Shown here: piece by piece, positions 19,061-58,272 of the stretch
Position numbering within the stretch: the stretch's first letter is position 1
Layout: each line of letters starts with the position of its first letter
Origin: an uncultured bacterium
GTDB lineage: Bacteria > Fermentibacterota > Fermentibacteria > Fermentibacterales > JCC-6
NCBI GenBank assembly: GCA_964553045.1
Contig: CAZKJG010000016.1
Span: 494 to 64,493, forward strand
Length of the DNA: 64,000 nt
Direction of reading: 5' to 3'
The notes under the pieces: model-generated
The model's input: the letters and a program-made list of their open reading frames with translations, nothing else
What the model was told of the DNA's origin: nothing
Database searches by the model: none
Translations under genes and position numbers: made by a program

Positions 19061-19564
19061 CTACATGAACCTCTCGAAGCGGTCGGCTGCCGCGCCGCAG
19101 ACGGGACACTTGCCCGGCGGGTCCGCCCGGGCGCAGAGGTAGCCGCAGACCCGACAGCGGTGGACCGGCAGCGCAAGCTCGCCGGATACCCTCTCCGGAC
19201 CGACCGATTCCCTGTTCTGCGGCCGTTGGGACGGGTCGGCCGGTCTCCTCTCCGGAACCGCCCCCAGCTCCTTCTCGCCGTCGCGGACCTCGTCGGAGAC
19301 GTACAGCCCGCAGTAGCAGGCGCCGTGCTCCACCAGGTCGGCGTCGCGGTAGTCGCAGGGGCAGATGATGTCCAGATCGTTGTCCCGCTCGCCGTCGGCC
19401 AGCCTGCAGGGGCATGCCATGTAGCCGTAGCGGTCGATGTTGGTGACCAGGCCCTCCATGAGCTGCATCGTGAACTCCCGGTCGGGGTTGAGGTTGTAGC
19501 CACCTTTCGCGGCCTGCTTCTTCAGCTTGTCGTAGAGCTTCTCGGCCCGTTTCCCGACGCTCAC
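19061..19564 (-). CDS. Ferredoxin:thioredoxin reductase catalytic-subunit-like protein fused to a C-terminal rubredoxin domain (FDR-like)
   Basis: FTR-B-like CPC...CPC/CYC motifs (YMACPCR, ICPCDYR, ACYCGLY). C-terminal CRVCGY...CPVCG rubredoxin knuckles. GTG start overlaps the glutaredoxin stop (GTGA). Confidence 0.75.
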   Translation of the reverse strand: MSVGKRAEKLYDKLKKQAAKGGYNLNPDREFTMQLMEGLVTNIDRYGYMACPCRLADGERDNDLDIICPCDYRDADLVEHGACYCGLYVSDEVRDGEKELGAVPERRPADPSQRPQNRESVGPERVSGELALPVHRCRVCGYLCARADPPGKCPVCGAAADRFERFM

Positions 19565-19848
19565 TGGTCCACCCCCAGAGCTTCCCGCAGCCTTTCGGGG
19601 TTGTGCCCGGCCACAACGGTTTCGCCATCCACCACGACGGTTGGGAAGCTTCCCACCGGGTTGTGCCTCTTCATCTCCTCGACGGCCTCGGTCCTCTCGC
19701 TGCCGCTGCGCCTGTCCACGTAGACGTAGGAGTACTCCACCCCCAGGCTGTCCAGCAGCTTCCTTGTCTTGCGGCACCAGACGCAGGTGCTCAGGGCGAA
19801 GAGCACTACCTTGCCCCTGTCCTCCCCGTCCACATGTGTCAGGTCCAT
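19561..19848 (-). CDS. Glutaredoxin/NrdH-like thioredoxin-fold protein
   Basis: About 95 aa with STCVWC (CxxC) active site and a glutaredoxin-like layout. Confidence 0.7.
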   Translation of the reverse strand: MDLTHVDGEDRGKVVLFALSTCVWCRKTRKLLDSLGVEYSYVYVDRRSGSERTEAVEEMKRHNPVGSFPTVVVDGETVVAGHNPERLREALGVDQ

Positions 19849-30108: not shown

Positions 30109-31680
30109 CTACCTGGTGACCACCAGCTTCGCGGTTGCCGTGCTGCCTCCGTCGATGACGCGCAGCAGGTGCACGCCCACCGGCAGCCTTCGGGCACCCA
30201 TGGAGAAGGCGGCGGCGCCCTCCGCATCTACGTCCCGGCGAAGAAGGCACCGGCCGGAGAGGTCGTAGACCTCCACCACTGCCGGGCCGCCCAGGTTCCG
30301 TGAGAGGCTGACGGTTACCGATTCCGAGGCAGGATTGGGCGCCAGGCCCACGGTGAGCCCGCTGCCGGCGGTCTCCGCAAACCCGTCCCCCGAGACTCCC
30401 TGTCCCACCGGCTCCGCCAGGTACGCCACCGTGGCGATGGCGCCCTTTATGCAGTTGGTGCCGAAGGGGAAGTACTCCAGGTAGTTGTCGAGTATGTCGG
30501 ATGTCTGGTGGTAATAGGGGTTGCCGTAAACATCGACCTCGATATTCAGAAGCGCGGAATACCCCTCGTCCCAGAAGGAGGAGTGATCACTGTAGGTCAT
30601 GCCCGGGTTGTGGTCGACGTTTTTTTCCAGGACGGGCACGTACGTGTCGGTGATGGCGTCCATCGCCAGGGCAAGTCCCGTGGACTGGGTATCGTAGACC
30701 ACCCACAGCTGGTCGCTTCCGGTGGGGCCGTAGTAGAGCATGTCCATGTTCACCACGCCCAGAATATCGTCTCCGGCCGCGGAGGCCTGCTCGGCGTAGT
30801 AGTCGCTGCCGTACAGCCCCTGCTCCTCCCCGCCGAAGGCCAGGTAGCGGACCGTGTACTTGAAGTCGTACCCGGACATCACCCGTGCTGCCTCCAGGAC
30901 TCCGGTGGAGCCGCTTCCATTGTCGTCGGCGCCGGGGGCGTCCGTATTGGGGTAGGGCGATGTGGAGTCAAGGTGTCCGCAGATTATGTAGATCTGGGTG
31001 GAATCCTCCGTCCCGGGCTGCTCGGCTATCACGTTCTGGCAGTCGTAGCTGCCCATGGAGAAGGTCTGCTGCTCCGCCGCCAGCCCGTAGGCCTCGAACC
31101 TCGACTCCATCCAGTTGCAGGCGCTGTCGTAGTTGTCGGTGCTGGAGTACCTGGTCTGGTAGTCCTGCAGGTGCTGGGTAACGGCCAGTATGCTGTCCTC
31201 CGACACGGCATCGACTATGTCCGCCACCTCGTCGTCGTAGCCCCTGTCCGTGAGGGGTATGGTCGACGGGGCGGAGATGTGCCTCTCCTCCAGCGGCCCG
31301 ATGAAATGCACGCCCTCCATCATCGGCGGAGTGGCGGCGTCGGGGACGTCGATACGGACGATAGCGGTCCGGCCCCTGTGAAGGACGATCTCGCCCAGCG
31401 TCCGAAGGCCTTCTATGCCGGATTCGTCGCGAAGGGTGGCCAGACGGTATGCCCCCAGCTCTCCGGCGGGGTCGTCCAGAACCTCCGTCCTCTCGGCCGG
31501 AAGAACGTCCGGGTCTCCCAGAAGCACCACGAAATCGGTTCCAACGTGAACAACCATGGCTCCGCCCGCCCATTCACTTCCAGTAAGTGCGCGGGTGTCG
31601 CAGTCGAGGCTGAAAAGCGCGTCTGCGGATACGGCGAATACCGCTCCCAGCAGGAGCAGCACGGCAAGATGCTTGATCAT
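30109..31680 (-). CDS. M28 family zinc aminopeptidase with T9SS C-terminal sorting domain
   Basis: HLDS...D.GADDNGSG and EEQGLYGS M28 metal ligands. Signal peptide. C-terminal NPASESVTVSL...VEVYDLSGR...GVHLLRV CTD. Confidence 0.85.
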   Translation of the reverse strand: MIKHLAVLLLLGAVFAVSADALFSLDCDTRALTGSEWAGGAMVVHVGTDFVVLLGDPDVLPAERTEVLDDPAGELGAYRLATLRDESGIEGLRTLGEIVLHRGRTAIVRIDVPDAATPPMMEGVHFIGPLEERHISAPSTIPLTDRGYDDEVADIVDAVSEDSILAVTQHLQDYQTRYSSTDNYDSACNWMESRFEAYGLAAEQQTFSMGSYDCQNVIAEQPGTEDSTQIYIICGHLDSTSPYPNTDAPGADDNGSGSTGVLEAARVMSGYDFKYTVRYLAFGGEEQGLYGSDYYAEQASAAGDDILGVVNMDMLYYGPTGSDQLWVVYDTQSTGLALAMDAITDTYVPVLEKNVDHNPGMTYSDHSSFWDEGYSALLNIEVDVYGNPYYHQTSDILDNYLEYFPFGTNCIKGAIATVAYLAEPVGQGVSGDGFAETAGSGLTVGLAPNPASESVTVSLSRNLGGPAVVEVYDLSGRCLLRRDVDAEGAAAFSMGARRLPVGVHLLRVIDGGSTATAKLVVTR

Positions 31681-36220: not shown

Positions 36221-36254
36221 TGCGTCGAGATTGCGCACAATGAAAGGGAATGTC

Positions 36255-37181
36255 ATGGACGAAGAGAGGAAGAAGATCCTGGAGATGGTGGCCGATGGGA
36301 AGATATCGGCCGACGACGGGGCCAAGCTCCTGTCCGCCCTGGAGCAGGGCGGTGGCGAGGGCAGGCCGTCGGCAGGGAAAGGGTTCCACAGGTCCCCCCG
36401 GCATTCCCGGGGATTCGAGTCCGTGCTCTCGGCGCTCTCCGGCATAGGCCCGGCGGTGCGGAACGCCGTGGAGTCCGCCATGTCCACGTTCGACATCGAC
36501 TCGGGCGATTCCTTCGACACCGATGTATACGAGGACCTGGAAGTCTTAGACTATGCCGCCGGCGCCGTAGAGGTCCCCGAAGGGTGCAGGCTGGTCTTCC
36601 GGACCCGAAGGCGGGAGGGGGGTAACCTCGAGCTGCAGGGGCACGAAGAGAGCACACTGCTGGTGGACGGCGATACGGAGGGCCTGAAGGTGATGGGCGA
36701 CGGGGAGATGATCGTGGTCGTCTGGGGCGATGGCCTTCTGAAGGCCGGTGTCCCCGCTTCGGCCCCTGTGGAGGTAAGGACCACCGGCGGCGATGTCTGT
36801 GCCTCGGGCATGTCCCGTGAGCTCAGGGTGAAGACCCTGGGAGGCAGCATCACCATGGAGGACGTTCGGGGCGCCCTCTCGGCGAAGACCATGGGCGGCT
36901 CCATCGTGCTCAGCGCTTCCGGAGGGCTCTCCGGAGCCTGCGCCGCCAAGACCATGGGCGGGGACGTATCCGTCACGCTGCCCACGGGGGCGGTATCCTC
37001 GCTGAGCGCCAAGACCCTGGGAGGCGAGGTGAGCATCGACGAGTCCCTGGGCCGGGTGGACCTGCAGGGCGGCCCGGGCTCCAGCAGGGGGACCCTGAGC
37101 TGCGAGGGCGGCGCCGACTCTTCGCTCTCGGTGAAGACGCTGGGCGGAAACATATCCGTGGAAAGGCGAGAGGATGGATGA
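36255..37181 (+). CDS. DUF4097 (YvlB/LiaG-like) beta-strand repeat protein
   Basis: N-terminal helical module (MDEERKKILEMVADGKISADDGAKLLSAL) then repeated VKTLGGSI / AKTMGGSI / AKTLGGEV / VKTLGGNI beta-repeats. Confidence 0.7.
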   Translation: MDEERKKILEMVADGKISADDGAKLLSALEQGGGEGRPSAGKGFHRSPRHSRGFESVLSALSGIGPAVRNAVESAMSTFDIDSGDSFDTDVYEDLEVLDYAAGAVEVPEGCRLVFRTRRREGGNLELQGHEESTLLVDGDTEGLKVMGDGEMIVVVWGDGLLKAGVPASAPVEVRTTGGDVCASGMSRELRVKTLGGSITMEDVRGALSAKTMGGSIVLSASGGLSGACAAKTMGGDVSVTLPTGAVSSLSAKTLGGEVSIDESLGRVDLQGGPGSSRGTLSCEGGADSSLSVKTLGGNISVERREDG

Positions 37182-37539
37182 GAACAGGGTACCTCCGCGA
37201 TGCCCCTCCTGCGGGGCCGCCATGCGGGTGGTTCGAGTGGAGTGTCCGGTATGCGGAACGGAAGTGACCGGTGACTTCGAACTCTGTCCCGCGTGCAGGC
37301 TGGGCGACGACCACCGAAGGATCTTCGACGCCTTTCTGCGGGCCCGCGGCAACGTGCGTGCCGTGCAGGGTGAGCTGGGCGTTTCCTATCCGACCGCCAG
37401 ACAGCGGATAGAGGAGATGTTCAGCGTTCTGGAGAAGGGCCCGCCGAGACCGGATCCCATGGTGGTCCTGAAGAAGCTGGAGGCCGGGGAGATAGACGTG
37501 GGGGCCGCTGCGGAGCTGCTGGCCGGAGGTGGCGGCTAG
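37174..37539 (+). CDS. DUF2089-like zinc-ribbon/HTH protein
   Basis: CPSCG...CPVCG zinc ribbon, a second CPAC pair, then a helical HTH-like C-terminus. ATGGATGA overlap with the DUF4097 stop. Confidence 0.65.
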   Translation: MDENRVPPRCPSCGAAMRVVRVECPVCGTEVTGDFELCPACRLGDDHRRIFDAFLRARGNVRAVQGELGVSYPTARQRIEEMFSVLEKGPPRPDPMVVLKKLEAGEIDVGAAAELLAGGGG

Positions 37540-38652
37540 CTAGGGGCGGGCTTCCGCTTCCGCCATCCAGTGCTGCAGCCTCCGCAGGCCTTCGGCCGGC
37601 ACCCGGTGTCCGCCCCGGAAGTCGAACAGCGTAACATCGTAGTCGAAGGACTCCAGCAGCCGCTTGGCCTCCATGCCCGCCTCGAACTCCACCGAGCGGT
37701 CCTCGCGTCCGTGGATTATCAGCACGGGCAGGCGGCTGGCGGCCTCCAGGACCTCGTCCGACGTATATTCCCTGTCCAGCCAGCCGGCGTTCACCACCAG
37801 GCCGTCGAAGACGTCGGGGTTGTGCAGACCGATCTCGTAGGTGAAGCCCCCGCCCTGGGAATGGCCCATCAGGTACACGCCGGAGACGGAATAGCGCTCC
37901 CGCAGGCTGCTCACGACTTCCAGCACGTACTCCTCGGCGATCGGCGCAGCCCTGTCACAGGTTTCCGTTCCGGGCTCTCCGATCATCCAGCTGTAGCCGC
38001 GGAAGTCCACGCCCTCCATTTCGAACGGCGCCCGGGGGCAGGCGAAGATGAAGTCCGGGTCATCGAACTCCCGCCACAGCCCGGAGAAGTCGTCGGGATT
38101 GCTTCCGTAGCCGTGAAGGGCAACCAGCAGCGGCAGGCGGGCGGAGGAGTCGTAATCGGCCGGCACGTGCACACGGCATGGCAGCAGGGTCCTGGACTCC
38201 ATGTACAGAGGCGTACCCAGCTCCCTCCGCCGGGCCAGTATGTCCCGGGTCAGGGTGTCGATGGCGGCCATGAAGGCCGGGTGCTGGCGTACCGGATTCA
38301 GGTCCGGGTCCCGCTCGATGTGCCCCAGGTTCGAGAAGCCGGCCTCGACCGCCAGCGCCAGATAGCGTGCTGCCAGCTCGGCCTCGCCCAGAAGCCCGTA
38401 GCAGCAGGCGAGGTTGTAGATGTTGCCGGTATCGGACACGTCGTAGCGAAGGGCCGCCAGGTAGTAGCCGGCCGCCTCCTCGTAATCGCCTGAAAGGTAT
38501 GCTTCGAGGGCCTGCCTCTCCAGCCTGGGCAGATCCACCGAGAGGAAGTCCCCCTCACGGGAGGAGTAGGGGTCTATGTCGGATACGTTCACGACCTCGT
38601 AGGAGAAGACTGCCGCGGCGGCAATCATCATCGGCAGAACGCATGCCCTCAT
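37540..38652 (-). CDS. Secreted alpha/beta hydrolase (phospholipase/carboxylesterase-like) with N-terminal TPR region
   Basis: Signal peptide. TPR-like repeats (YYLAALRYD...LACCYGLLGE). GHSQGG nucleophile elbow, C-terminal HGREDR...GGH triad candidates. Confidence 0.7.
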   Translation of the reverse strand: MRACVLPMMIAAAAVFSYEVVNVSDIDPYSSREGDFLSVDLPRLERQALEAYLSGDYEEAAGYYLAALRYDVSDTGNIYNLACCYGLLGEAELAARYLALAVEAGFSNLGHIERDPDLNPVRQHPAFMAAIDTLTRDILARRRELGTPLYMESRTLLPCRVHVPADYDSSARLPLLVALHGYGSNPDDFSGLWREFDDPDFIFACPRAPFEMEGVDFRGYSWMIGEPGTETCDRAAPIAEEYVLEVVSSLRERYSVSGVYLMGHSQGGGFTYEIGLHNPDVFDGLVVNAGWLDREYTSDEVLEAASRLPVLIIHGREDRSVEFEAGMEAKRLLESFDYDVTLFDFRGGHRVPAEGLRRLQHWMAEAEARP

Positions 38653-38683: not shown

Positions 38684-40642
38684 TCAGCGGCCGCCCGTGA
38701 TTACCTCCAGAACCTCGGGGAAGTCAACTCCCAGCTCCTCGAGCTTCTCCCGCCCGGGTACGCCGTCTTCGCTCCATCCCCTAAGCCGGTAGAGGGCGTC
38801 GAGGAGTCGGTTGTAGCGGTCTTCCCTGTGCTTCCGCAGGGCCGAGACCTTCTCTTCTGCGGACATGGATTCGGGGTCCGTTCCTGCCTCTTCGCGAAGC
38901 TGGCTGTCGTACATGTCCCTTCGGGTCTCGTACTCGTCCTCGGTCACCGGGCCCTGGGCACGATAGGGAAGTGAATCGTGCTCCCTGGTACCGTAGCCCA
39001 TTCGCAGGTCGAAAACCCTCCGGAAGTTGTGAACCCTCTCGGACATCTCCAGGAGGCTGCCCGGAGTCTGGCCGCTGCCGGTAACGCCCTCGAAGAGGCC
39101 GCAGTAGCTGAGCACCCTTGCCGGGGCCTTTTCCGGATCAAGTGAGTTCCAGGGAAGGCCGCACAGGCCGCAGAGGCTGAACCAGCTGTTCCAGAGCTGA
39201 GAGCTGTGGAGGGCCTCGGCCAGTTCTTCGGGCCCGCGTGGGCCATCCTTCCCGACCCCGGTGAGCATCGGCCAGCGGCCATCCTGCAGGTCGCCACCTG
39301 CACCGGCGCCGAGGGCGGCCTGATGGACGAGCGATTCCCCGGTTGCGACCTGAGGCAGTTCCAGTCCCTTGCTCTCCATTCCGATGTCTTCCAGCAGCTC
39401 CCCATCGGCGTCGTAGTGCTCCTCGAAGTAGTACTTCATGAAGCGGATGCCCTTGCCCGCAATGCGTCCGAAGCCCCTGGACTCCGCCACGGCATGCAGC
39501 AGGGCGAGGGCGGCACCGTCGTTTCCGAATTCGAGCTTCAGGCCGTCGGTCTTCTCCGCGTCGAGTATGCCCTGCTCGAAGCACTCCATGACAAAGGCTG
39601 TCGAGGTGGCGAAGGAGATGGGATCGATTCCGTAGGTTCCGCAGTAGAAGCAGTACTCCATGACGAAGTCGGGATCGAAGATGCCCATGTTGGAGGCTCC
39701 GGCGACCACTCCGTAGTCCGGGCCCTCCACAGAGACGGGTTCCCCTGCGTAGGGGCCGGTCTGCGGCTCGAAGCCCGAGACCGACTTTCGGCAGGATAGC
39801 CCGCAACCCAGCCAGCAGGCGTCTGTACTTCCGGTGTCGAAGTATGGGGAGAGGGATTCTTCGTACAGGCACTTCGCGTCTTCGTGGCCGTATGCGCGGC
39901 AGTTGGCCACCGGAAGGAGGTTGGCTTCGCTCATGCTCTCGATGAGTCGGGCGGTTCCCGAACGTCGCAGACCTCCCTGAACGCCCCGGGAGAATACGAT
40001 ATCGCGTGTGATCTCCATACCGGCTCTGCGGATCGCGTCCGCGTCGCCGGGCGCACCGGGATGGTCGTGAAGGCTCAGGGCTTCGGTGGGGCAGACCTCC
40101 ACGCATATCCCGCAGCCGGTACAATACCCGTCATCCGGCCGGGGAATGCTCAGCCTGCGCTCGGAGCCGCTCCCGGCGAAGCTGATGACTTCCTGTCCGT
40201 TAAGCCGGCGACAGGCCTGGACGCAGAGACCGCAGAGAATGCAGGCCCTCGGGTTGCAGTCAGCCCCGCGAACTGCGGGGCGCGGCCGCTGTATTCCGTG
40301 GGAGCGCGCCATCTCGCGAATGGCCTCGACCTTTGGCCATCGGGCGTAGAGCAGCTCCAGCACATTCCTGCGGTGCGACACCACTCTTTCCGAGGAGGTA
40401 TCCACCTTCAGATCGCTGCGAACGGGGAAGGTGCAGGAGGCGACCAGCCGCCTGCCGCCGCCGTCATCCACCTCGACCATGCACAGCCGGCAGGCGCCGT
40501 AGGGCTCCGTCAGGGGGCTTCCGCAGAGCGCGGGTATTCCGACCCCGGCCATCTCCGCCGCCTCCATGACCGTGGTATCACGCGCCACCTCGACCACTTC
40601 GCCTTCCAGATCGACCTTGAACATCTCCCGATCACCCATCAT
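38684..40642 (-). CDS. Chimeric subunit: HydA/NuoG-like N-terminal Fe-S module ([2Fe-2S] plus 2x[4Fe-4S]) fused to AOR catalytic domains 2-3
   Basis: N-terminus: 2Fe-2S ferredoxin fold (CGSPLTEPYGACRLCMV), CILCGLCVQAC, CTGCGICVEVCP. C-terminus: AOR-family motifs CWLGCGLSC ([4Fe-4S] ligands) and GIDPISFATSTAFVMECFEQGIL (the AOR D.IS.G..A.AMEL.E.G pterin-domain motif). ATGATGA start/stop overlap with the upstream gene. Confidence 0.8.
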   Translation of the reverse strand: MMGDREMFKVDLEGEVVEVARDTTVMEAAEMAGVGIPALCGSPLTEPYGACRLCMVEVDDGGGRRLVASCTFPVRSDLKVDTSSERVVSHRRNVLELLYARWPKVEAIREMARSHGIQRPRPAVRGADCNPRACILCGLCVQACRRLNGQEVISFAGSGSERRLSIPRPDDGYCTGCGICVEVCPTEALSLHDHPGAPGDADAIRRAGMEITRDIVFSRGVQGGLRRSGTARLIESMSEANLLPVANCRAYGHEDAKCLYEESLSPYFDTGSTDACWLGCGLSCRKSVSGFEPQTGPYAGEPVSVEGPDYGVVAGASNMGIFDPDFVMEYCFYCGTYGIDPISFATSTAFVMECFEQGILDAEKTDGLKLEFGNDGAALALLHAVAESRGFGRIAGKGIRFMKYYFEEHYDADGELLEDIGMESKGLELPQVATGESLVHQAALGAGAGGDLQDGRWPMLTGVGKDGPRGPEELAEALHSSQLWNSWFSLCGLCGLPWNSLDPEKAPARVLSYCGLFEGVTGSGQTPGSLLEMSERVHNFRRVFDLRMGYGTREHDSLPYRAQGPVTEDEYETRRDMYDSQLREEAGTDPESMSAEEKVSALRKHREDRYNRLLDALYRLRGWSEDGVPGREKLEELGVDFPEVLEVITGGR

Positions 40643-42483
40643 CGAACCTCCACGGCCTCGAAGCTGCACACATCCCTGCACATGCCGCAGCGGATACATG
40701 TTCGATCGTCTATTCGGTGGGTCTCGCCGGGCTCACCCGAGATCGCACCCACGGGGCAGACCTCGGCACAGGCCGTGCATCCCGTGCACTTTCCCTTGTC
40801 GATGCTGAACCGGATCAGCTCCGGACATTCAGCCGCCGGGCACCTGCTCTCCTCGATGTGGGCCGAGTACTCCTGGGGGAAGTTTCGGATGGTGCTCAGT
40901 ACCGGGCCTGCCGCCCGCTGTCCCAGGCCGCATATGCTGCACTCGGCCATAGTGTCTCCCAGCTCCTGCAGAAGACCTGTGTCCTCCCTGGAGCCCTCCC
41001 CCCGGATGATCCGTCCCATTACCTCCGACATGGCCGCCAGCCCCTCTCTGCAGGGGACGCACTTGCCGCAGGACTCCTCCAGCAGAAGGTCGATGCAGTA
41101 GCGGGCGTAACGGACCATGCAGGTGTCCTGGTCGATCACCGTGAGCATACCCGAGCCCATGGACACGCCGGCATCTGCCAGCGCGTCGAATTCCAGGGGC
41201 AGGTCGAGGTCGCTCTCGGGAATCAGCACGCCGGAGGGACCTCCCAGCTGCGCCGCCTTGAAGCCGGCGCTGTCCGGCGGGCCGCCGCCGATATCGAAGA
41301 TCACTTCCCTGAGCGTGATGCCCATCGGCACTTCCACCAGCCCGGTGGCGGCAACGCTTCCCGACAGCCCGAGCACCTTGGTGCCGGAGGAGTTTTCGGC
41401 GCCCTTGGAGGCGAACCACTCGGGGCCCCTTGCGATGATGGAGGGCACGCACGCCAGGGTCTCGACGTTGTTCAGAACCGTCGGCCTGCCCAGAAGGCCT
41501 TTCTCGAAGGAGGGGACATAAAGGTCATGGGCCTCGGGCGGAAGCCCGGCAAGTGCGGCCATGAGCGCCGAGGACTCGCCGCAGACGAAGGCCCCCTCGC
41601 CCCTGTGCAGATCGACATGGAAATCGAAGCCCGTACCGAGTATGTCCTCTCCCAGCAGCCCCCGGTCAGCCGCCTGCTCGATGGCCCGGCCGAGCCTCTT
41701 CAGTGCAAGGGGATACTCACGTCTGGTGTAGATGTATCCCCGTCTGGCTCCCGTGGCATAAGCGGCGATGAGCATCCCCTCGAGGATCGAATGGGGATCC
41801 GACTCGACGATCCTGGCGTCCTTGAACCCCCCCGGGTCGCTGTCTTCTGCGTTGCAGACCAGGAGGGGCTCTTCACCCGCGCTCCCGGCGGCCTCCCTGC
41901 AGCTGCGCCATTTCGCGCCCGTATGGGCTCCCCCTCCGCTCCTGCCGCGCAGCCCAGAGCTCACCACGGCTTCGACTACCTCTTCGGGCTTCATCTTGTC
42001 CAGTACCTCTGCCAGGGCACCGTATCCCCCTGCTCCCAGATAGTCGTCCATGCTCTCGGGGTCGGTCTGAGTGCGGTTCTGCAGGACGACCAGCTCCTGT
42101 TTTCCGAAGAATGGCACATCCTCGACGCGGGGACATATCTTGTCGCCGCTGCGGTACATCAGCCTCTCCACCGGCTTGCCGTCCTCGAGGTGCTGGGCGA
42201 TTATGTCCGCGAGGTCGTCGCCGCCCACCCTGGTGTAGAGGATGCCGTCGGGCTGCACAAGCACCAGCGGCCCCTCTGCACAGAAACCCAGGCATCCGCT
42301 CCGTACGACCAGGTACTCCTCGGAGAGGTCCCTCTTGATGAACTCGCCCACCAGCCTGTCGTAGAGGCCCGAAGACTGCCGGGCCCCGCAGCCGGTCCCG
42401 GTGCAGACCAGGATGGTCTTCCTGTAGTCCTGGCGCCTCCTGCGGGCCCTTTCCTGCAGATCCTTCAGCTCCTCAAGCGTCAT
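40639..42483 (-). CDS. HydB/HoxF/NuoF-like NAD(P)H-binding flavoprotein with N-terminal thioredoxin-like [2Fe-2S] and C-terminal 2x[4Fe-4S]
   Basis: GAGGYGA NAD/FMN region, FVCGESSALMAAL, ESCGKCVPCREG (N3 cluster). N-terminal CTGTGC...CLGFC. C-terminal CTGCTACAEVCP and CIRCGMCRDVC. Confidence 0.85.
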   Translation of the reverse strand: MTLEELKDLQERARRRRQDYRKTILVCTGTGCGARQSSGLYDRLVGEFIKRDLSEEYLVVRSGCLGFCAEGPLVLVQPDGILYTRVGGDDLADIIAQHLEDGKPVERLMYRSGDKICPRVEDVPFFGKQELVVLQNRTQTDPESMDDYLGAGGYGALAEVLDKMKPEEVVEAVVSSGLRGRSGGGAHTGAKWRSCREAAGSAGEEPLLVCNAEDSDPGGFKDARIVESDPHSILEGMLIAAYATGARRGYIYTRREYPLALKRLGRAIEQAADRGLLGEDILGTGFDFHVDLHRGEGAFVCGESSALMAALAGLPPEAHDLYVPSFEKGLLGRPTVLNNVETLACVPSIIARGPEWFASKGAENSSGTKVLGLSGSVAATGLVEVPMGITLREVIFDIGGGPPDSAGFKAAQLGGPSGVLIPESDLDLPLEFDALADAGVSMGSGMLTVIDQDTCMVRYARYCIDLLLEESCGKCVPCREGLAAMSEVMGRIIRGEGSREDTGLLQELGDTMAECSICGLGQRAAGPVLSTIRNFPQEYSAHIEESRCPAAECPELIRFSIDKGKCTGCTACAEVCPVGAISGEPGETHRIDDRTCIRCGMCRDVCSFEAVEVR

Positions 42484-42499
42484 GATCGCAAGCCCCTCT

Positions 42500-42964
42500 C
42501 TATTCGAAACGCGCCAGGAGGTCGCCGACCTCCGATGGTCTCACAGTACCCACAACCTCGCCGTTTACGGCTACGGCGGGGGCCAGTCCGCAGCAGCCCA
42601 GGCATCTCACCCGTTCCAGCGAGAACCTGCCGTCTTCGGTGGTCTCCCCCTCCTCAATGCCCAATTCCCTCTCCAGAGCCGACATCAGCCTGGGGGCGCC
42701 CTTCAGAAAGCAGGCGGCGCCCATGCAGACCTGGATATTCCTCTCCCCCCGGGGCTTCAGGCTGAAGCCCGAGAAAAAGGTAGCCAGATGGAAGAGCCTT
42801 CCCCGGGGTACGCCGATCAGCAGAGCCAATCTTCCCAGGGCCTGCTCGGGTATGTACCTGTAGATCTCCTGGACGTCCTGCAGCATCTCGGTGGCGTACT
42901 CGGGGTCGCGGTTCCATCTCTGCACAATGCGGTCGATTCTCTCCAGGGCATCCACCCTAATCAC
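42500..42964 (-). CDS. HydC/HoxE/NuoE-like thioredoxin-like [2Fe-2S] subunit
   Basis: CMGACFLKG...CLGCCGLAP cluster motifs. GTG start inferred near 42955-42964 at the AOR-N stop; plus or minus 9 nt uncertain. Confidence 0.7.
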   Translation of the reverse strand: MIRVDALERIDRIVQRWNRDPEYATEMLQDVQEIYRYIPEQALGRLALLIGVPRGRLFHLATFFSGFSLKPRGERNIQVCMGAACFLKGAPRLMSALERELGIEEGETTEDGRFSLERVRCLGCCGLAPAVAVNGEVVGTVRPSEVGDLLARFE

Positions 42965-43793
42965 CACCCTCGTCGCAAGGATCGCCGCCACAGGGGATTT
43001 CCTCCTCCAGGACCAGCTTGGAACATGCGGCAGGGGCCTTGACCACAAGGGCCTTAAGGCCCTTGCGCCGAAACACCGAGCCGGCTCCCCCCCGGCCACC
43101 CTGGAAGGTCCGTATCGTCCTCCCCCGGGGGTCCCACCATGAGAGGCCGAGTGAGCCGATCCAGCTGTTCTCTGCACCCCTGCCGGCGGTGACAGTGGAG
43201 AGCAGCCTGCGATCTTCGTCCTCCCCGGAGTACATCTCGAAGAGCTCACGCACCGCCAGGTGGGTGTCCGTGGAGAGTAGCGGGCTCTCTTCCAAGGTTA
43301 CCCGGCCCTCGGTGCCGTCAATTCTCACGATGACGTCCGTTTCCGCCTTGCCCACCAGCACCAGCCCGTCGAAGCCGGCGAACTTCAGCAGGGGTCCGAA
43401 ATGGCCGCCGGCGCTGGAATCCACGACCGCCCCGGTAGTGGGTGATATTGTCGCAATGGAGGAGTATCCCGCACCGGGAAACAGCGCCGTGCCTCCGAGG
43501 GGCCCGGATGATATGCATATGGGATTCCCGTCGCTGTCCCACTTTGTCTTCGGAGTGGTCTCCTGCCAGGCCATGAGGAGGTTGAATCCCCTGCCTCCGA
43601 CGAAGAGGTCCTTCATGCTCTCGGTTACGGGAACTGTCCTGAAGGAGGGCTCGGATACGTTCACTCTGAGTATCTCGCCCGTGTAGCCCTTCGCGGCCCC
43701 TCTGGGATCGTAGGAGAACTCCGCCAGGACCTTCTGAGCCTTCAGAATATCCCGGGCTGTCCGCTTCTCGGCCATGCGCATCCCCCGGTTCAT
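42957..43793 (-). CDS. AOR N-terminal domain (domain 1) as a stand-alone protein
   Basis: Collinear with the AOR N-domain: GYTGEILRVNVSE, GGRGFNLLM, GPLGGTALFPGAGYSSIATISPTTG, GGHFGPLLKFAGFDGLVLVGKAE, VTAGRGAENS. Ends after about 210-240 aa, without domains 2-3. Confidence 0.8.
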   Translation of the reverse strand: MNRGMRMAEKRTARDILKAQKVLAEFSYDPRGAAKGYTGEILRVNVSEPSFRTVPVTESMKDLFVGGRGFNLLMAWQETTPKTKWDSDGNPICISSGPLGGTALFPGAGYSSIATISPTTGAVVDSSAGGHFGPLLKFAGFDGLVLVGKAETDVIVRIDGTEGRVTLEESPLLSTDTHLAVRELFEMYSGEDEDRRLLSTVTAGRGAENSWIGSLGLSWWDPRGRTIRTFQGGRGGAGSVFRRKGLKALVVKAPAACSKLVLEEEIPCGGDPCDEGGD

Positions 43794-44038: not shown

Positions 44039-45052
44039 ATGAGAGCTTTGCTTCTTCTTGCGCTGGTTCCGGCCATAGCCTTTGGGGCGAGCGTGGTCAA
44101 GACGATAGATGCCCCCGATAGCGGCATCGCCGGCCTCGCCTGGGGCTCGGGAAGCCTGTGGGCGTCGGACGGAGGCACCGGCAACGTGTACGAGCTGGAC
44201 CCCGCTGACGGAACGGTTCTCAGCTCGTTCTACTGCGACAACGGAACACCCGGGGGGCTGGCTCACATGTCCGGCGACCTCCACGTGCTCAACTCCGAGT
44301 CGGGCACCTACGTCGGCTACGTCTACAAGTACTCCGAGGGAGGGTCCTACCAGGGCGCATACGACACGACCTGTTGAGGCAGCGCCCTCTACCAGTCGGT
44401 GACTGGTATAGCTTCCGACAACACATCTTACACCTACGTCCTTGGAGACGGCTACTACGACGACCCCGTCGTCGAGTACTTCAACAGCAGCGGCAACGTG
44501 GGAACCTCTCCCTACATGCAGGACATGCCGGCCCTGTCCTCGCACTACGACATAGCCTACGAGGGCGGCGACGGCGACGGCGACATATGGGTCGCCTGCG
44601 ACGCGGCCGACAGTCCCATAAGATCATACGACACCGACGCTCAGATGGTTGCCTGGGTGTCCGGGGGCGATCTGCCCTCCGGCGCGCAGATTCGGGGATT
44701 GACCTTCGATACCAACGGATACCTCTGGGCCAGCGACTACAACGCCCAGAAGATCTACCAGATCGATCTGACCAGCGGCGCCGCCGAGGGAGTCAGCTCG
44801 ACGGTAGGAGGCATGGCCCTTTCCGTTTCCAGCAACCCGTTCTTCGGTTCGGTCACCCTCAGCCTCAGTGGCGTGGAGGGGACCGCCGAGCTGGCCGTCT
44901 TCGACCTCGCCGGCAGAACGGTTGCCCGGGAGCGGATCGGGAGCGGCTCTTCGATTGCCTGGAACGGGGAAGGAGTGCCCAGCGGCACCTACCTTGTCCG
45001 CGCCACCACCGAAGACGGTGTCTCGGCCACCAGGCTGGTCACCAAGCTCTAG
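44039..45052 (+). pseudogene. Secreted beta-propeller-like (NHL/SGL-like) protein with T9SS CTD, interrupted by an in-frame TGA
   Basis: ATG at 44039 after GGAAGGAGG. Signal peptide MRALLLLALVPAIAFG. In-frame TGA at 44375-44377 (YDTTC*GSALYQ) joins two same-frame ORFs. C-terminal SSNPFFGSVTLSL...LAVFDLAGRTV...GTYLVRATT CTD. Confidence 0.5.
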
Positions 45053-45200: not shown

Positions 45201-45890
45201 TCAGGCCCGTACCTGTACCTCTTCCACATAGGGCTCCACGGCCCGCGCGGTCTCCTCCAGATACCCCTTTGGATAGGGGGGGAGGTCGCGGTAGGCGTCC
45301 GACAGGGTCTTGCCGCCGCGGAATCTCTGAAGGACGTAGCGCTGGAAGGGGCCGTGCGTTCGAAGTATTCGCTCCACGCCCTCCTTGTCCACGATGCCGG
45401 GAACCATGGTGGTTCGGATCTCGTAGGCCGGAAGTGCCCTGATCATCTCCAGGCTCTCCACGACATCATCGAATCGGGCGTGACCTCCGGTGGCTTTCCC
45501 GTAGGCTCCCGGCGCGGCCTTGAGGTCCATCGCCACGTAGTCGACCAGGTCCAGGACCTCCCGGAGCCTCTTCGGCAGGGTACCGTTCGTGTCCAGCTTC
45601 ACCGGAAGGCCGGTTTCCCTGCGCACGCTGAGAATGAAATCGGACAGGCCGGGGCTGAGAAGGGGCTCACCGCCGGTTATGGAGACTCCCTCTATGAAGC
45701 CATCCCGGGCCTTGAGGCGGTCGAGGACGATGTCGGCCGACAGGGTGTACTGGTCCGCCAGGAGGTCGGGACGCACCAGCTCGGGGTTGTGGCAGAAGGG
45801 GCAGTAGAGGTTGCAGCCACCGAAGAAGACCACCGAGGCTATCTTGCCGGGGTACTCTATGAGGCTGGTTCCCTCGAAGGAGCGGATCAA
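45201..45890 (-). CDS. nrdG: Anaerobic ribonucleoside-triphosphate reductase activating protein (radical SAM)
   Basis: CNLYCPFCHN radical-SAM motif close to the N-terminus, typical NrdG size. Non-ATG start, exact start uncertain. Confidence 0.8.
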   Translation of the reverse strand: MIRSFEGTSLIEYPGKIASVVFFGGCNLYCPFCHNPELVRPDLLADQYTLSADIVLDRLKARDGFIEGVSITGGEPLLSPGLSDFILSVRRETGLPVKLDTNGTLPKRLREVLDLVDYVAMDLKAAPGAYGKATGGHARFDDVVESLEMIRALPAYEIRTTMVPGIVDKEGVERILRTHGPFQRYVLQRFRGGKTLSDAYRDLPPYPKGYLEETARAVEPYVEEVQVRA

Positions 45891-46072
45891 CTCCCGGATT
45901 CCTGCGCGGAGCCGATGCTCACGTACTCGCGCTGCTCGAACTCTTCGCGCTTGCCGCGGTTCCAGTCCTGCACCGGACGGTAGTAGCCCACTACCCTGGA
46001 GTAGACCTCGGTCCTTACGGCTTTGATCCTGGTTCCCCTGTCGATTCCCTCTTCCGAGCGCGCGTCTGCCAT
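45887..46072 (-). CDS. Small protein carrying an NrdD-type glycyl-radical motif (RVVGYYRPV...WNRGK)
   Basis: 61-aa ORF MADARSEEGIDRGTRIKAVRTEVYSRVVGYYRPVQDWNRGKREEFEQREY.... ATG one nt after the nrdD TGA, with GGAG/AGGTG upstream. Stop overlaps the nrdG start. Confidence 0.55.
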   Translation of the reverse strand: MADARSEEGIDRGTRIKAVRTEVYSRVVGYYRPVQDWNRGKREEFEQREYVSIGSAQESGS

Positions 46073-46073
46073 T

Positions 46074-48191
46074 TCAGATCTCCACCTTTCCAACCTCCAG
46101 AGAGAGGCTCCTCTGGTTGGAGCTCTCCCCGCTCTCGTGCATGACCCTGTAACTCCCCTCCTGTAGGAGGTCTCCGCCGTTCCAGACCATTTCCATGCCG
46201 TGCTTGGCTATCTCCTCGTCGGTGTGCGGGTAGGGACATACGAAGTGCTCGCCGGCTATGTAGCCGTGAACGGGGCATATGGAGAAAGTGGGAGTAAAGC
46301 TGAAGTAGGGAAGGCTGAAGTTCTCCACTACGGTTCTGGCCAGCTTTCGGACCATCTTCCAGTCCGTGATGGCCTCTCCTATGAACACGTGCACCACGGT
46401 CCCGCCGGTGAACTTGCCCTGCAGGGGGTCCTGATGGCCCAGAAGCTCGAACATGTCGGTCCTAACGTCCACCGGCAGATGGACGGAGTTGGTGTAGTAG
46501 CGGTTCGTGCCCCCCATCGCGGCAGCGTCCGGGAACCTTTCGAGGTCCTTTCGGGCCAGCCTGTAGGAGGCCCCTTCGGCCGGAGACGCCTCCAGGTTGT
46601 ACAGGTGGCCGCTCTCGTGCTGGAACTCCGTGAGCTTGTCGCGCATGAAGTCAAGGACCTCCAGAGCCCAGTCACGGGACCGGGAGTCCTCGATGCCCTG
46701 GCCTGTGAAGTTGATGCAGGCCTCGTTCATGCCGATGAGGCCGACGGTGGAAAAGTGGTTGGCCCAGTACGATCCCTGCTCGCTCTTGATGCTGCCCAGG
46801 TAGTGGCGCGTATAGGGGTAGAGTCCCCGGTCGGTCAGTTCCTCTATGAGCCCCCGCTTCAGCTCCAGCGACTCCCGCGCCGCCTCCATGACCGCGCTGA
46901 GCCGGTTGTAGAACTCGTCGTGGTTGCCGGCTGTGTAGGCTATCCTGGGCAGGTTTACGGTCACCACTCCGATGGAGCCGGTGAGCGGGTTCGACCCGAA
47001 AAGCCCGCCGCCGCGCTTTCGCAGCTCGCGGTTGTCCAGCCGAAGACGGCAGCACATGCTGCGGGCGTCGTCGGGGTCCATGTCCGAGCCCACGAAGTTG
47101 CTGAAGTAGGGGATGCCGTACTTGCCCGTCATCTCCCACATGGGGCGCAGCTCCTCGTTGTCCCAGTCGAAGTCCTCGGTAAGGTTGTAGGTGGGAATGG
47201 GGAACGTGAATATCCTCCCCTTCTCGTCACCCTCCATCATCAGGCGGGAGAATGCGCGGTTGAAGACGTTCATCTCCTCCTGGAAGTCGGCGTAGGTCAG
47301 CTCCCGCTCCCCGCCGCCCACCACCACTTTGCGTTCGGCCAGCGAAGGCGGGACCTTGAGGTCCATGGTGATGTTGGTGAACGGCGTCTGAAAGCCGACC
47401 CTCGTGGGGATGTTCACATTGAAGAGGAACTCCTGCAGACACTGCTTGACCTCGTTCTCGTTGAGGCGGTCGTAACGGATAAACGGGGCCAGCAGGGTAT
47501 CGAAGTTGGAGAACGCCTGGGCACCGGCCGCCTCCCCCTGCAGGGTGTAGAAGAAGTTCACTATCTGCCCCAGTGCCGTCCTGAGGTGCGAGGGAGGTGC
47601 CGACTCGATCTTGCCCCTGGCCCCCCGGAAGCCGTACCGAAGCAGCTCCATCAGGTCCCAGCCCACGCAGTAGGGGCCGAGTATGCCGAGGTCGTGTATG
47701 TGCATGTCGCCGTTGTCGTGGTACTCCTTTATGCGTGGTGTGTAGATCTTGCTCAGCCAGTACCTGGCCGTGATGGAGGAGGAGAGGTAGAAGTTCAGAC
47801 CCTGGAGGGAGTAGTTCATGTTGGAGTTCTCGTTTACCCTCCAGTCCTCCCGGCCGATGTAGTCGCCGACCAGGCCGTCGATTCCGCTGAATATCCGGTC
47901 GACCTCGCGGGCCTCGTTGCGCTTCTCGCGGTAGAGGATGAAGGCCCTGGCCGCGGCGGTCAGGCCCCGCAGCACAAGGGTCTCCTCGATGAAATCCTGT
48001 ATCTGCTCTACGGTGGGGACGGTGCCGCCCTTGAAGAATTCCATGTACAGTGCGGCCTCCACCTGGCCGGCCAGGTCCGCCGGGCTCTCTTCGCTCTCGC
48101 CGACCCTGAGGGCCTTCTCGATGGCCAGCTGGATCTTCCTCTTGCGGTAGGTGGCAATCCGTCCGTCACGCTTGCGTATCAACCAGTCCAT
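46074..48191 (-). CDS. nrdD: Anaerobic ribonucleoside-triphosphate reductase (class III) with ATP-cone, apparently lacking its C-terminal glycyl-radical motif
   Basis: N-terminal ATP-cone (IRKRDGRIATYRKRKIQLAIEKAL), class III RNR core, degenerate Zn site CPVH...CPYPH. The ORF ends without an RVxGY motif. Confidence 0.9.
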   Translation of the reverse strand: MDWLIRKRDGRIATYRKRKIQLAIEKALRVGESEESPADLAGQVEAALYMEFFKGGTVPTVEQIQDFIEETLVLRGLTAAARAFILYREKRNEAREVDRIFSGIDGLVGDYIGREDWRVNENSNMNYSLQGLNFYLSSSITARYWLSKIYTPRIKEYHDNGDMHIHDLGILGPYCVGWDLMELLRYGFRGARGKIESAPPSHLRTALGQIVNFFYTLQGEAAGAQAFSNFDTLLAPFIRYDRLNENEVKQCLQEFLFNVNIPTRVGFQTPFTNITMDLKVPPSLAERKVVVGGGERELTYADFQEEMNVFNRAFSRLMMEGDEKGRIFTFPIPTYNLTEDFDWDNEELRPMWEMTGKYGIPYFSNFVGSDMDPDDARSMCCRLRLDNRELRKRGGGLFGSNPLTGSIGVVTVNLPRIAYTAGNHDEFYNRLSAVMEAARESLELKRGLIEELTDRGLYPYTRHYLGSIKSEQGSYWANHFSTVGLIGMNEACINFTGQGIEDSRSRDWALEVLDFMRDKLTEFQHESGHLYNLEASPAEGASYRLARKDLERFPDAAAMGGTNRYYTNSVHLPVDVRTDMFELLGHQDPLQGKFTGGTVVHVFIGEAITDWKMVRKLARTVVENFSLPYFSFTPTFSICPVHGYIAGEHFVCPYPHTDEEIAKHGMEMVWNGGDLLQEGSYRVMHESGESSNQRSLSLEVGKVEI

Positions 48192-53912: not shown

Positions 53913-55547
53913 ATGTTCGACGCTGCATCAGACGTACCGTTTCCGGCCAACGAGCCGGTCCTTTCCTACGCTCCCGGGACCAAGGAGAGAGAGGCCCTGG
54001 AGAAGGAGCTGAAGAGACTCGGGTCAGGGGTGGAGGAGATTCCACTGATCATCGGCGGCAAAGAGGTTAAGACGGGTGACATCGCCGAGGTGGTCTGCCC
54101 CCACGATCACGGTCACGTTCTGGCCCGCTACCATCGGGCAGGCCCCGAGCACGTTGAGATGGCCGTCGAGACCGCCATGGAGGCATGGCGGGAGTGGTCG
54201 GACATGGACCACGATCAGCGGTTCGCCGTCTTTCTCAAGGCCGCCGAGCTGCTCTCCGGCCCTCGCAGGCACACCGTCAACGCCGCCACCATGCTCAACC
54301 AGTCGAAGAACCCCTTTCAGGCCGAGATAGACAGCGCCTGCGAGCTGATCGACTTCTGGCGCTTCAATCCGTGGTATGCCCAGCAGATCTACGCCCAGCA
54401 GCCCCTCTACAGCCCTGATGGCACCTGGAACAGGACCGAGTACAGGCCCCTGGAAGGCTTCGTTCTGGCGGTGACCCCGTTCAACTTCGTCTCCATAGGC
54501 GGCAACCTTCCCACTGCTCCGGCCATGATGGGGAACGTGGTCATCTGGAAGCCGGCCTCTTCGGTGGTATTCTCCAACTACCAGATAATGAAGATCCTCA
54601 TGGAGGCCGGAATGCCGGCCGGAGTGATCAACTTCCTGCCCGGTTCGGGCTCGAAGATCGGCGACCCGCTGGTGGACAGTCCCCATCTGGCCGGCATCCA
54701 CTTCACCGGCAGCACAGGCACCCTGCAGCACATGTGGAGAAGGGTGGCGGACAACCTCGACAGATACCGCGGCTTCCCCAGGATCGTGGGGGAGACCGGG
54801 GGGAAGGACTTCGTGATGGTCCACCCCAGCGCCGACGTCGAGCAGGTATCCACCGCCCTGATCCGTGGAGCCTGGGAGTACCAGGGCCAGAAGTGCTCGG
54901 CGGTGAGCAGGGCCTACGTACCCAAGTCGATGTGGGACGGCGTGAGGAAGCGCCTGGTGGCCGCAGCCGGGGAGATAGAGCCCGGCCCGGTGGAGGAAGT
55001 GTCCAGGTTCTTCAACGCCGTGATAGACCGTGCGGCCTTCGAGAGCATCGGGGAGTACCTGGACCTAGCCCGGGAGTCCGAAGACTGCGAGGTAGTCACC
55101 GGCGGGGGCCGTGACGACAGCGTGGGCTACTTCATCGAGCCCACAGTAGTGCGCACCACGGACCCGAAGCACCGGCTGATGCAGGAGGAGATCTTCGGCC
55201 CCGTCCTCACCGTCTACGTATACGATGACTCCAAGTGGGAGGAGACCCTCTCGCTGTGCGACGGGACCTCCCCCTACGGCCTCACCGGTGCGGTGTTCGC
55301 CACAGACCGCCAGGCGGTGGCCAAGGCCGAGACCGCGCTGCGCCACAGCGCCGGTAACTTCTACATCAACGACAAGCCCACGGGAGCCGTGGTGGGACAG
55401 CAGCCCTTCGGGGGCGCCCGGGCGTCGGGAACCAACGACAAGGCCGGCAGCGCCTTCAACCTCATGCGCTGGGTGAGCCCCAGGGCGGTGAAGGAGAACT
55501 TCAACCCGCCCCGGGACTACGGCTACCCCTTCATGGACAGGGACTGA
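53913..55547 (+). CDS. pruA: L-glutamate gamma-semialdehyde (1-pyrroline-5-carboxylate) dehydrogenase
   Basis: Collinear similarity to RocA/PruA-type P5CDH: VIWKPAS, catalytic QKCSAVSRAYV, EEIFGPVL, YGLTGAVF. GAAGGGAGGA SD. Confidence 0.9.
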   Translation: MFDAASDVPFPANEPVLSYAPGTKEREALEKELKRLGSGVEEIPLIIGGKEVKTGDIAEVVCPHDHGHVLARYHRAGPEHVEMAVETAMEAWREWSDMDHDQRFAVFLKAAELLSGPRRHTVNAATMLNQSKNPFQAEIDSACELIDFWRFNPWYAQQIYAQQPLYSPDGTWNRTEYRPLEGFVLAVTPFNFVSIGGNLPTAPAMMGNVVIWKPASSVVFSNYQIMKILMEAGMPAGVINFLPGSGSKIGDPLVDSPHLAGIHFTGSTGTLQHMWRRVADNLDRYRGFPRIVGETGGKDFVMVHPSADVEQVSTALIRGAWEYQGQKCSAVSRAYVPKSMWDGVRKRLVAAAGEIEPGPVEEVSRFFNAVIDRAAFESIGEYLDLARESEDCEVVTGGGRDDSVGYFIEPTVVRTTDPKHRLMQEEIFGPVLTVYVYDDSKWEETLSLCDGTSPYGLTGAVFATDRQAVAKAETALRHSAGNFYINDKPTGAVVGQQPFGGARASGTNDKAGSAFNLMRWVSPRAVKENFNPPRDYGYPFMDRD

Positions 55548-58269: not shown

Positions 58270-58272
58270 CGC

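Follow-up and report, generated by a model that had tools for sequence, protein, structure and literature searches.

The DNA considered here is a stretch of 64,000 nucleotides (hereafter the window) on contig CAZKJG010000016.1 from an uncultured bacterium of the Fermentibacterota. Its minus strand carries a run of four genes, the last of which, at 38684 to 40642, joins an iron–sulfur (Fe-S) module to domains 2 and 3 of the aldehyde oxidoreductase (AOR) family. Our analysis suggests that this cluster, which is probably co-transcribed, likely encodes a bifurcating complex of the HydABC/Bfu type with an AOR catalytic module split over two polypeptides. In their order on the minus strand, the four genes are as follows.

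42957 to 43775, minus strand: stand-alone AOR domain 1 (AFOR_N), 272 residues; Pfam AFOR_N 6.8e-42, profile positions 1–197 of 199.
42500 to 42967, minus strand: BfuC/NuoE/HoxE-like [2Fe-2S] subunit, about 151–155 residues; Pfam 2Fe-2S_thioredx 9.5e-42, NCBIfam HoxE 1.9e-39 and NuoE 2.2e-37.
40639 to 42483, minus strand: BfuB/HydB/NuoF-like subunit, 614 residues; Pfam and PDB matches.
38684 to 40642, minus strand: Fe-S/AOR fusion gene, a WorA/BfuA-like Fe-S module joined to AOR domains 2–3, 652 residues.

The starts and stops of these genes overlap or are closely spaced. The ATG of the fusion gene overlaps the TGA of the gene upstream (ATGA) and is preceded by a GGAGG motif. BfuC starts with a GTG at 42967, 42964 or 42955, of which the first two overlap the final codons and stop of AFOR_N and the third lies just past that stop. 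The open reading frame of AFOR_N itself reaches 43793, and the identical database protein (P0121) begins at the Met at 43775. A promoter and terminator scan returned 0 promoter-like sites and 0 minus-strand terminator-like sites, and is uninformative.

Within the fusion gene, the following elements can be distinguished, with residue numbers referring to its protein.

40391 to 40627, minus strand: [2Fe-2S] domain for cluster A1, residues 6–84 (Pfam Fer2_4 4.8e-14; C40, C51, C54, C70).
40076 to 40255, minus strand: two ferredoxin-type [4Fe-4S] motifs for clusters A2 and A4, residues 130–189 (Pfam Fer4_7, Fer4_21; dicluster 8.2e-10).
40016 to 40075, minus strand: junction where the Fe-S module meets AOR domain 2, residues 190–209.
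38729 to 40015, minus strand: AOR domains 2–3 (AFOR_C), residues 210–638 (Pfam AFOR_C 1.4e-70).
39791 to 39817, minus strand: C276-x3-C280-x3-C284, three ligands of the AOR [4Fe-4S] cluster, by profile alignment to AorB (8c0z_A).
39710 to 39712, minus strand: G311, at the Glu313 position by sequence alignment.
39161 to 39163, minus strand: C494, fourth ligand of the AOR [4Fe-4S] cluster, in a G-L-C motif aligned to the G-I-C motif of AorB.
39113 to 39382, minus strand: remodelled active-site segment, residues 421–510, holding V432 and Q453, with an 11-residue deletion relative to the family.

A first-pass annotation of the window had read this gene as a chimera in which an Fe-S N-terminus of the NuoG/HydA type precedes AOR domains 2–3, and Pfam, the cysteine motifs and fold matches all bear this out. 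An alignment-based AlphaFold2 model of the single chain (predicted local distance difference test 84.8, predicted template modelling score 0.81) was matched by Foldseek to WorA over its N-terminal ~196 residues and to AOR-family structures over the remainder, where the matches include 9mqx_D (1.8e-16), 1b25_A, 9g7j_A and 1aor_A. The closest solved match to the N-terminus is WorA (9mqx_A), at 2.4e-32 with the single sequence and 2.1e-49 with a family profile; it aligns to WorA residues 5–190, with a root-mean-square deviation of 2.8 Å and 37% identity in Foldseek. HydA, to which the annotation had referred, is thus apt for the general type of the N-terminus but is more distant than WorA. In HydA the Fe-S module is followed by the H-cluster domain, whereas in the window fusion Pfam finds no hydrogenase large-subunit/H-cluster domain, and AFOR_C fills residues 210–638 instead. 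NCBIfam hydrogenase models matched only residues ~9–107, far under their cut-offs, and NCBIfam holds no model specific to the Fe-S/AFOR_C fusion. The His-ligated A3 motif is also missing between A1 and A2, as it is in WorA.

The individual motifs named by the annotation are largely recovered, though not all of them to the letter. Both of its [4Fe-4S] motifs are present (C134/137/140/144 and C174/177/180/184), but the first, C134-x2-C-x2-C-x3-C144, is followed by R rather than P, and only the second, C174-x2-C-x2-C-x3-C184-P, is strictly CxxCxxCxxxCP. The CxxxCxxxC ligand cluster is present as C276/C280/C284, with the first Cys moved by one residue relative to the canonical CxxCxxxC, and the fourth Cys, which was to be checked, is conserved as C494. 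The pterin-domain motif, given as D.IS.G..A.AMEL.E.G, has a homologous rather than identical counterpart that reads D340-P-I-S...A-F-V-M-E-C-F-E-Q-G (DPISFATSTAFVMECFEQG).

A search of 5.8 billion proteins places the fusion in a large family. About 75 clusters of proteins of roughly 660 residues carry the same three-part architecture at 41–62% identity; among their sources are Fermentibacteria/Aegiribacteria, Planctomycetota, Myxococcota, Cloacimonadota, KSB1, Armatimonadota and Coatesbacteria. With one genome scanned for each species (GTDB), at least 596 loci of this AOR clade were obtained; full-length fusions account for 15 of the best 80 scanned loci, in metagenome-assembled genomes (MAGs) of about ten phyla. 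The named relatives closest to the window proteins belong to Candidatus Aegiribacteria and Fermentibacteraceae. In the databases, family members are labelled "(2Fe-2S)-binding protein", "AOR C-terminal domain-containing protein", "hypothetical protein" or "NuoE".

An alignment of 71 fusion relatives shows the 12 N-terminal cysteines and the four AOR cysteines to be invariant, and C276, C280, C284 and C494 are invariant across 72 fused and 44 unsplit relatives. Judged by their sequence, the 12 N-terminal cysteines would supply the clusters A1 and A2 plus A4 by which the Bfu scheme recognizes a BfuA subunit. The junction is conserved as well, with the consensus DDPN.P.D..RIR.AGM, in which G208 is invariant and N196, P198 and D200 are nearly so; the window protein keeps P198, D200 and G208 and has G at 196. 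A 651-residue protein identical to the window fusion (P0001, 100%) is known from two independent sources, NCBI and Logan. The alternative, in which an assembly or sequencing artefact fused two adjacent genes, found no supporting evidence. It would have to account for the same architecture and length in some 75 independent clusters and in 15 species genomes of many phyla, for conserved junction residues, for the identical protein in both sources and for a model that folds with confidence as one chain. On these grounds, the Fe-S/AFOR_C chimera is a real conserved gene, as the first-pass annotation had held, and a fusion made by an indel is effectively excluded.

The two genes next upstream of the fusion resemble those of a bifurcating core. 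The translated BfuC shows the four cysteines of a [2Fe-2S] thioredoxin-like subunit, as the Bfu scheme requires of BfuC. BfuB combines an N-terminal thioredoxin-like [2Fe-2S] domain, a flavin mononucleotide (FMN)/NADH domain, an SLBB domain, the NuoF [4Fe-4S] site, a Cys/His site and two C-terminal [4Fe-4S] motifs. It matches, from end to end, NiFe-HydB 7t2r_B (3.7e-185), HydB 8a6t_B (2.5e-182), HydB 7q4v_B (1.6e-179) and WorB 9mqx_B (5.8e-176). In the alignment with 7t2r_B all the BfuB cysteine motifs are present, so that the FMN/NADH domain, B1 and the extra clusters expected of a BfuB are all found. Complex-I NuoF has no counterpart of the [2Fe-2S] motif at the N-terminus or of the two [4Fe-4S] motifs at the C-terminus; in the Bfu classification, these clusters and BfuC together are what defines a bifurcating core (PMC9304861).

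This bears on a second alternative, namely that the enzyme is a non-bifurcating NAD(H)- or ferredoxin-linked oxidoreductase in which the NuoEF-like subunits act as an NAD+ reductase only, like WorN/AorC in AorABC and like NuoEF-type modules in NAD-dependent formate dehydrogenases. There is precedent in the NuoEF-type modules of R. capsulatus Fdh and complex I, both non-bifurcating (PMC9304861), and a review notes that the endergonic step is undemonstrated even for WOR1 (PMC12096430). However, the extra N-terminal [2Fe-2S] and two C-terminal [4Fe-4S] clusters set bifurcating BfuBs apart, and the full-length alignment of BfuB to four structurally characterised bifurcating enzymes (E at most 1e-176) contrasts with a match of about 1e-90 to NuoF that is confined to the core region. 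We therefore think this alternative improbable, and favour a bifurcating complex.

The third of the AOR fold that the fusion lacks is encoded by the first gene of the cluster. AOR domains 2–3 match AOR structures by fold in the single-chain model, and AFOR_N matches domain 1 by sequence, its PDB matches including 1aor_A (7.6e-18) and 8c0z_A residues 2–205. Among the 120 best of 264 AFOR_N homologues, 79 are stand-alone proteins of ~265 residues. The closest unsplit relative (P0095, 716 residues) is 46% identical to the window AFOR_N over its residues 8–244 and 49% identical to the window fusion over its residues 252–711, which places the break exactly at the border of domains 1 and 2. The AOR here is split rather than truncated, its missing third being a gene separated from the fusion by two others.

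The gene order AFOR_N–BfuC–BfuB–fusion is kept in distant lineages (L001, L003, L005) and in a close relative (L013), and overall in 17 of 18 loci with enough upstream sequence, GTDB loci included. In a further 41 of the top 120 AFOR_N homologues, from Elusimicrobia, Aminicenantes and others, AFOR_N and BfuC are fused in frame into a protein of ~430 residues. Two such loci (L011, 7001–12208, and L012, 7001–12131) show a three-gene variant that reads [AFOR_N-BfuC]-BfuB-[BfuA'-AFOR_C]-ThiF-ThiS. That the parts are joined differently in other lineages argues strongly, on comparative grounds, for all four products belonging to one complex. Taken as sequence, it looks as though a bfuCBA cassette had interrupted an AOR gene, with the ends fused or fusible in frame. 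In a neighbour-joining tree built on AFOR_C, fused and unsplit proteins do not fall into separate groups; the mean identities among fused proteins and between fused and unsplit ones are both about 66%, and the tree does not decide between one and several origins of the split.

If the four products do assemble, AFOR_N and domains 2–3 would come together from two polypeptides into a pyranopterin site of the AOR family, with W or Mo, for a third substrate. The pterin centre would hand electrons to the AOR [4Fe-4S] cluster (C276/C280/C284/C494); from it they would move directly within the same chain to A4, A2 and A1, and from A1 to BfuB (B1, FMN), where they would be divided between NAD+ and ferredoxin. 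A WorS polyferredoxin would not be needed on this route, which would correspond to that of WorABCSL minus the WorS nanowire (PMC12318220).

What the pterin site might act on is suggested by its second shell. The conserved second-shell residues of AOR are Thr243, Glu313, Tyr427 and His448 (PMC12096430; PMC12318220; PMC13328260), and a profile alignment to AorB (8c0z) equates the family residues T230, Y310, E311, Y432, H453 and W457 with Thr243, Tyr312, Glu313, Tyr427, His448 and Tyr452. Among 72 other fused proteins, Glu is retained in 69, His in 69, Tyr in 70 and Thr in 71, and all four are present in each of 44 unsplit relatives. Because nearly all members keep these residues, an aldehyde-oxidising pterin site is the natural expectation for the main family, which would likely couple aldehyde oxidation to reducing NAD+ and ferredoxin at the same time, as has been shown for WorABCSL.

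The window copy departs from this pattern. The first-pass annotation had proposed checking the conservation of the pterin and active-site residues, and that check fails: T230 is kept, and Gly311, Val432 and Gln453 replace Glu313, Tyr427 and His448. The window fusion forms a monophyletic sub-clade with three other proteins (P0002, P0003 and P0006), whose members are probably Fermentibacterota relatives. In this sub-clade, Glu313 has become G or R, His448 Q, R or N, the equivalent of Asp338 G or T, and Tyr427 V or C in three of the four members. The remodelled segment, residues 421–510, is 85–93% identical among main-family members that are otherwise only 45–65% identical, but falls to 37–44% identity when the window protein or P0002 is compared with the main family; the window protein and its two closest relatives also share the 11-residue deletion. 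The partner AFOR_N of the sub-clade has changed in concert, at positions where 160 to 162 of 165 relatives (~97%) agree, and relative to the consensus at 90% or more the window AFOR_N carries K104Y, N121S, V122A, N210G, R218G, K224F and A226G.

These losses lend themselves to another explanation, in which the AOR module of the window and its three closest relatives is a dead relic that has stopped binding or using a pyranopterin and serves the BfuABC core as an Fe-S scaffold or as an electron entry point. The role of the complex would then be something else than the oxidation of a small substrate molecule at a W/Mo site. Three of the four second-shell residues are gone together with the Asp338 equivalent, and the ~97%-conserved residues of domain 1 are lost in the same lineages, including those aligned with Arg76 and Asn93. 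The normally ultra-conserved segment 421–510 is here the least conserved part of the protein, and the only part modelled with low confidence; no pterin maturation genes lie near the window locus, and all Fe-S ligands are kept. Set against these points is the evidence for selection. The ratio of nonsynonymous to synonymous substitution rates (dN/dS) for P0002 and P0003, the pair used since synonymous sites between the window and L013 are saturated at 62–77% protein identity, is 0.29 overall but only 0.18 within the remodelled segment and 0.06 over residues 301–420, so selection is still acting on the module. D340, T230, Y310, W457 and the G-L-C494 motif are retained along with every Fe-S ligand, and the sub-clade has a segment pattern of its own, GG.L.DG.WP...HSSQLW.SWF, which resembles a new constraint rather than decay. 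A Bfu core without a third substrate, moreover, has no obvious function. Since dN/dS is low, no Fe-S ligand has been lost, and both L013 and L094 have an intact operon with intact flanking genes, the fusion module of the sub-clade is under purifying selection and not decaying, and we consider a dead relic unlikely.

Several observations weigh against the bifurcating, pterin-dependent enzyme that we favour. The window fusion lacks the equivalents of Glu313, Tyr427, His448 and Asp338, and its AFOR_N lacks the conserved K104, which aligns with Arg76 of the P. furiosus enzyme, and N121, which aligns with Asn93 of the Mg site and is Ser here. Chan et al. (1995) reportedly describe Arg76 and Arg182 as contacting the pterin phosphates, a role for which a search of the literature consulted gave no confirmation. 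Going by these sequence changes, pterin binding or catalysis may have been lost in the window copy. The sub-clade fusion also diverges faster than its partners (62% against 71–77% identity), and no ThiS/ThiF, Moa or tungstate/molybdate transport genes were found in the 64-kb window or beside the sub-clade loci. Counting in favour of our reading, several main-family loci are adjoined by ThiS/ThiF, MoaA/MoaC/MoeA and TOBE-type ABC transporter genes. In one Planctomycetota MAG (L023, 109–2864), AFOR_N lies directly upstream of the fusion without BfuC or BfuB genes in between, which may represent a non-bifurcating or differently organised split enzyme. Finally, while the analysis shows the domain content, the split, the synteny, the conserved ligands, the substitutions of the sub-clade and the purifying selection, we infer complex formation, cofactor content, electron path, bifurcation and substrate from homology and gene order.

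Weighing these points, we find it most likely that ordinary aldehydes are not the substrate of the window copy, or that it holds its cofactor in another way. For the sub-clade, a non-aldehyde reaction is possible, with benzoyl-CoA reductase as the precedent, and a dead module kept for its cluster seems less likely. More tentatively, one might picture the whole history as a worL-type gene that was interrupted by bfuCBA, giving a minimal, nanowire-free bifurcating WOR, and whose site was then rebuilt under selection in the window lineage, either for non-aldehyde chemistry or as a cofactor-less redox module; this full scenario we regard as possible and somewhat doubtful.

Downstream of the fusion gene, on the same strand and 31 bp past its stop, lies a gene for a tetratricopeptide repeat and alpha/beta-hydrolase protein with a signal-like N-terminus (37540–38652), and beyond it, on the opposite strand, a DUF2089 and SHOCT-DUF4097 pair, the whole stretch running from 36231 to 38652. 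The arrangement of hydrolase and DUF pair is kept in the sub-clade relatives (L013, 9988–12396; L094, 2621–5029). Type IX secretion C-terminal sorting domains (Por_Secre_tail/FlgD_ig) occur at 3552–3959 (minus strand), 30109–31680 (minus) and 44399–45052 (plus), which is consistent with an FCB-group or Fermentibacterota origin; one of these genes is the operon's direct upstream neighbour, encoded on the opposite strand, and L013 shows the same. Open reading frames of up to 682 residues run antisense over the operon (39884–41101, 40717–42765 and 39206–39799, all plus strand); their GC is high at codon position 1 and not at position 3, so they are by-products of 64% GC and not genes.

Elsewhere in the window, an NAD(P)-dependent aldehyde dehydrogenase (53913–55547, plus strand; Aldedh 6.7e-102) lies ~10 kb from the cluster, so the genome has a conventional route of aldehyde oxidation. 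An anaerobic ribonucleotide reductase NrdD (1.2e-171) with its radical-SAM activase (45201–48191, minus strand) indicates an anaerobe. A 435-residue protein at 7338–8645 (plus strand) has a C-terminal 2x[4Fe-4S] ferredoxin domain (~337–390) after ~330 N-terminal residues without a Pfam match, and its gene is flanked by an unannotated 459-residue open reading frame and a CitMHS-type transporter. The window further holds a glutaredoxin gene (19561–19848) and an SbcCD-like pair (56977–61737). In its last 2 kb, where GC is 0.59 against about 0.64, an AbiEii-type nucleotidyltransferase toxin (1.3e-29) is accompanied by an overlapping upstream open reading frame of 185 residues without a Pfam match, possibly its antitoxin (62443–63962, minus strand).

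Electron-bifurcating Bfu enzymes and tungsten oxidoreductases (WORs) are both active research fields. To our knowledge, the only characterised link between them is WorABCSL, a five-subunit nanowire assembly of 3:1 stoichiometry. The family described here would be a simpler version, with four polypeptides, or three where AFOR_N is fused to BfuC, and since its catalytic domain is hard-wired to BfuA it would make an attractive minimal system for work on structure and mechanism. It also illustrates how, in nature, one domain of an enzyme can become detached and persist as a subunit of its own, a history recorded by the gene order and the alternative fusions. Censuses of WorL that need both InterPro domains in one protein overlook the family, and with its generic annotations it is missed by metabolic reconstructions of Fermentibacterota, Cloacimonadota, Myxococcota, Krumholzibacteriota and others. 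We know of no non-aldehyde chemistry in the AOR family so far other than that of benzoyl-CoA reductase, and the sub-clade with the rebuilt active site is a candidate for another case.

Among known systems, the nearest in overall design is WorABCSL (AmWOR1 of Acetomicrobium mobile, 9mqx), which, like the window cluster, combines a pyranopterin module of the AOR family with a BfuABC bifurcating core. WorA likewise has A1, A2 and A4 and no A3, with an electron route of A4-A2-A1-B1 (PMC12318220), and the best fold match of the fusion's C-terminal part is WorL. The two differ in that WorABCSL has five separate subunits, with an intact WorL of the two-domain type, a four-cluster nanowire WorS and three SL units to one ABC. 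WorA ends in a Zn finger and an adaptor helix, where the window fusion has AOR domains 2–3 instead, and the gene order is N-C-B-A' in the window as against SLCBA or CBASL. No WorS-like gene was found in or beside the window cluster or at the related loci, which sets them apart from the five-subunit Class IV. The AOR part of the window is ~21% identical to WorL and falls in a separate clade, whose unsplit members have ~715 residues.

These unsplit proteins (P0076–P0120) are the nearest sequence relatives of both halves, main-family members being about 66% identical to them. The CxxxCxxxC...GLC cluster motif and the KGAQHDEAW motif are common to them and the fused family, but they are single polypeptides with no Bfu genes nearby. 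This parent clade occurs in at least 596 species-representative genomes, its hosts including Chloroflexota, Bipolaricaulota, Bathyarchaeia, Desulfobacteraceae and Bacteroidales, and in three loci (L007, L008 and L009, 7001–9150 each) the neighbours are GTP cyclohydrolase I and ThiI in every case. We found no characterised member of the clade. E. coli YdhV was considered as a model for it and set aside, as its AFOR_N is only 31% identical and its C-terminal part has no meaningful match.

The AORs of P. furiosus (1AOR) and A. aromaticum (AorABC, 8C0Z) have the same [4Fe-4S] ligands and G-L-C motif as the fused family, whose two halves would together correspond to their three-domain AOR fold. They also have the second-shell Thr243, Glu313, Tyr427 and His448 in common with most of the fused family, whereas the window protein has Gly, Val and Gln at the last three; they differ in being monomeric, or of LS(N) composition with a nanowire. 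Class II benzoyl-CoA reductase, through BamB-I, is alike in having an AOR-family subunit, a non-aldehyde reaction and NuoEFG/BfuABC-like partners, and so sets an example of a bifurcating WOR whose active site has been remodelled. BamB, however, is intact and pairs with BamC and Hdr-like subunits, and the match to 4z3w is weak (E about 1e-7 to 1e-6, in the C-terminal tail only).

The Type 1 Bfu enzymes (FeFe-HydABC, Nfn-Bfu, Type 1 Fdh-Bfu and F420-Bfu) resemble the window cluster in placing the catalytic domain on the BfuA C-terminus, where it feeds A4, on a conserved BfuBC core (PMC9304861). The classification gives this type for FeFe, Nfn, Fdh and F420 but has no WOR entry under it (PMC9304861), and none of those listed has an AOR/WOR domain or a separately encoded catalytic piece. 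The supplement to that classification contains nothing on these phyla or this architecture, and our literature searches returned no description of a split or BfuA-fused AOR, nor of an AOR with NuoEF in that form. A 2026 census of WORs counts a protein as WorL only if a single chain carries both InterPro domains (PMC13328260), a rule that excludes split proteins by design; in the window, AFOR_N (IPR013983) and AFOR_C (IPR001203) lie on separate polypeptides with two genes between them. In published schemes, bifurcating WORs comprise only the five-subunit WorLSABC, with SLCBA or CBASL operons (Class IV, PMC13328260; Type 2 Wor-Bfu, PMC9304861). A split AOR wired directly to BfuA without WorS thus stands outside the published classifications of both WOR and Bfu enzymes.

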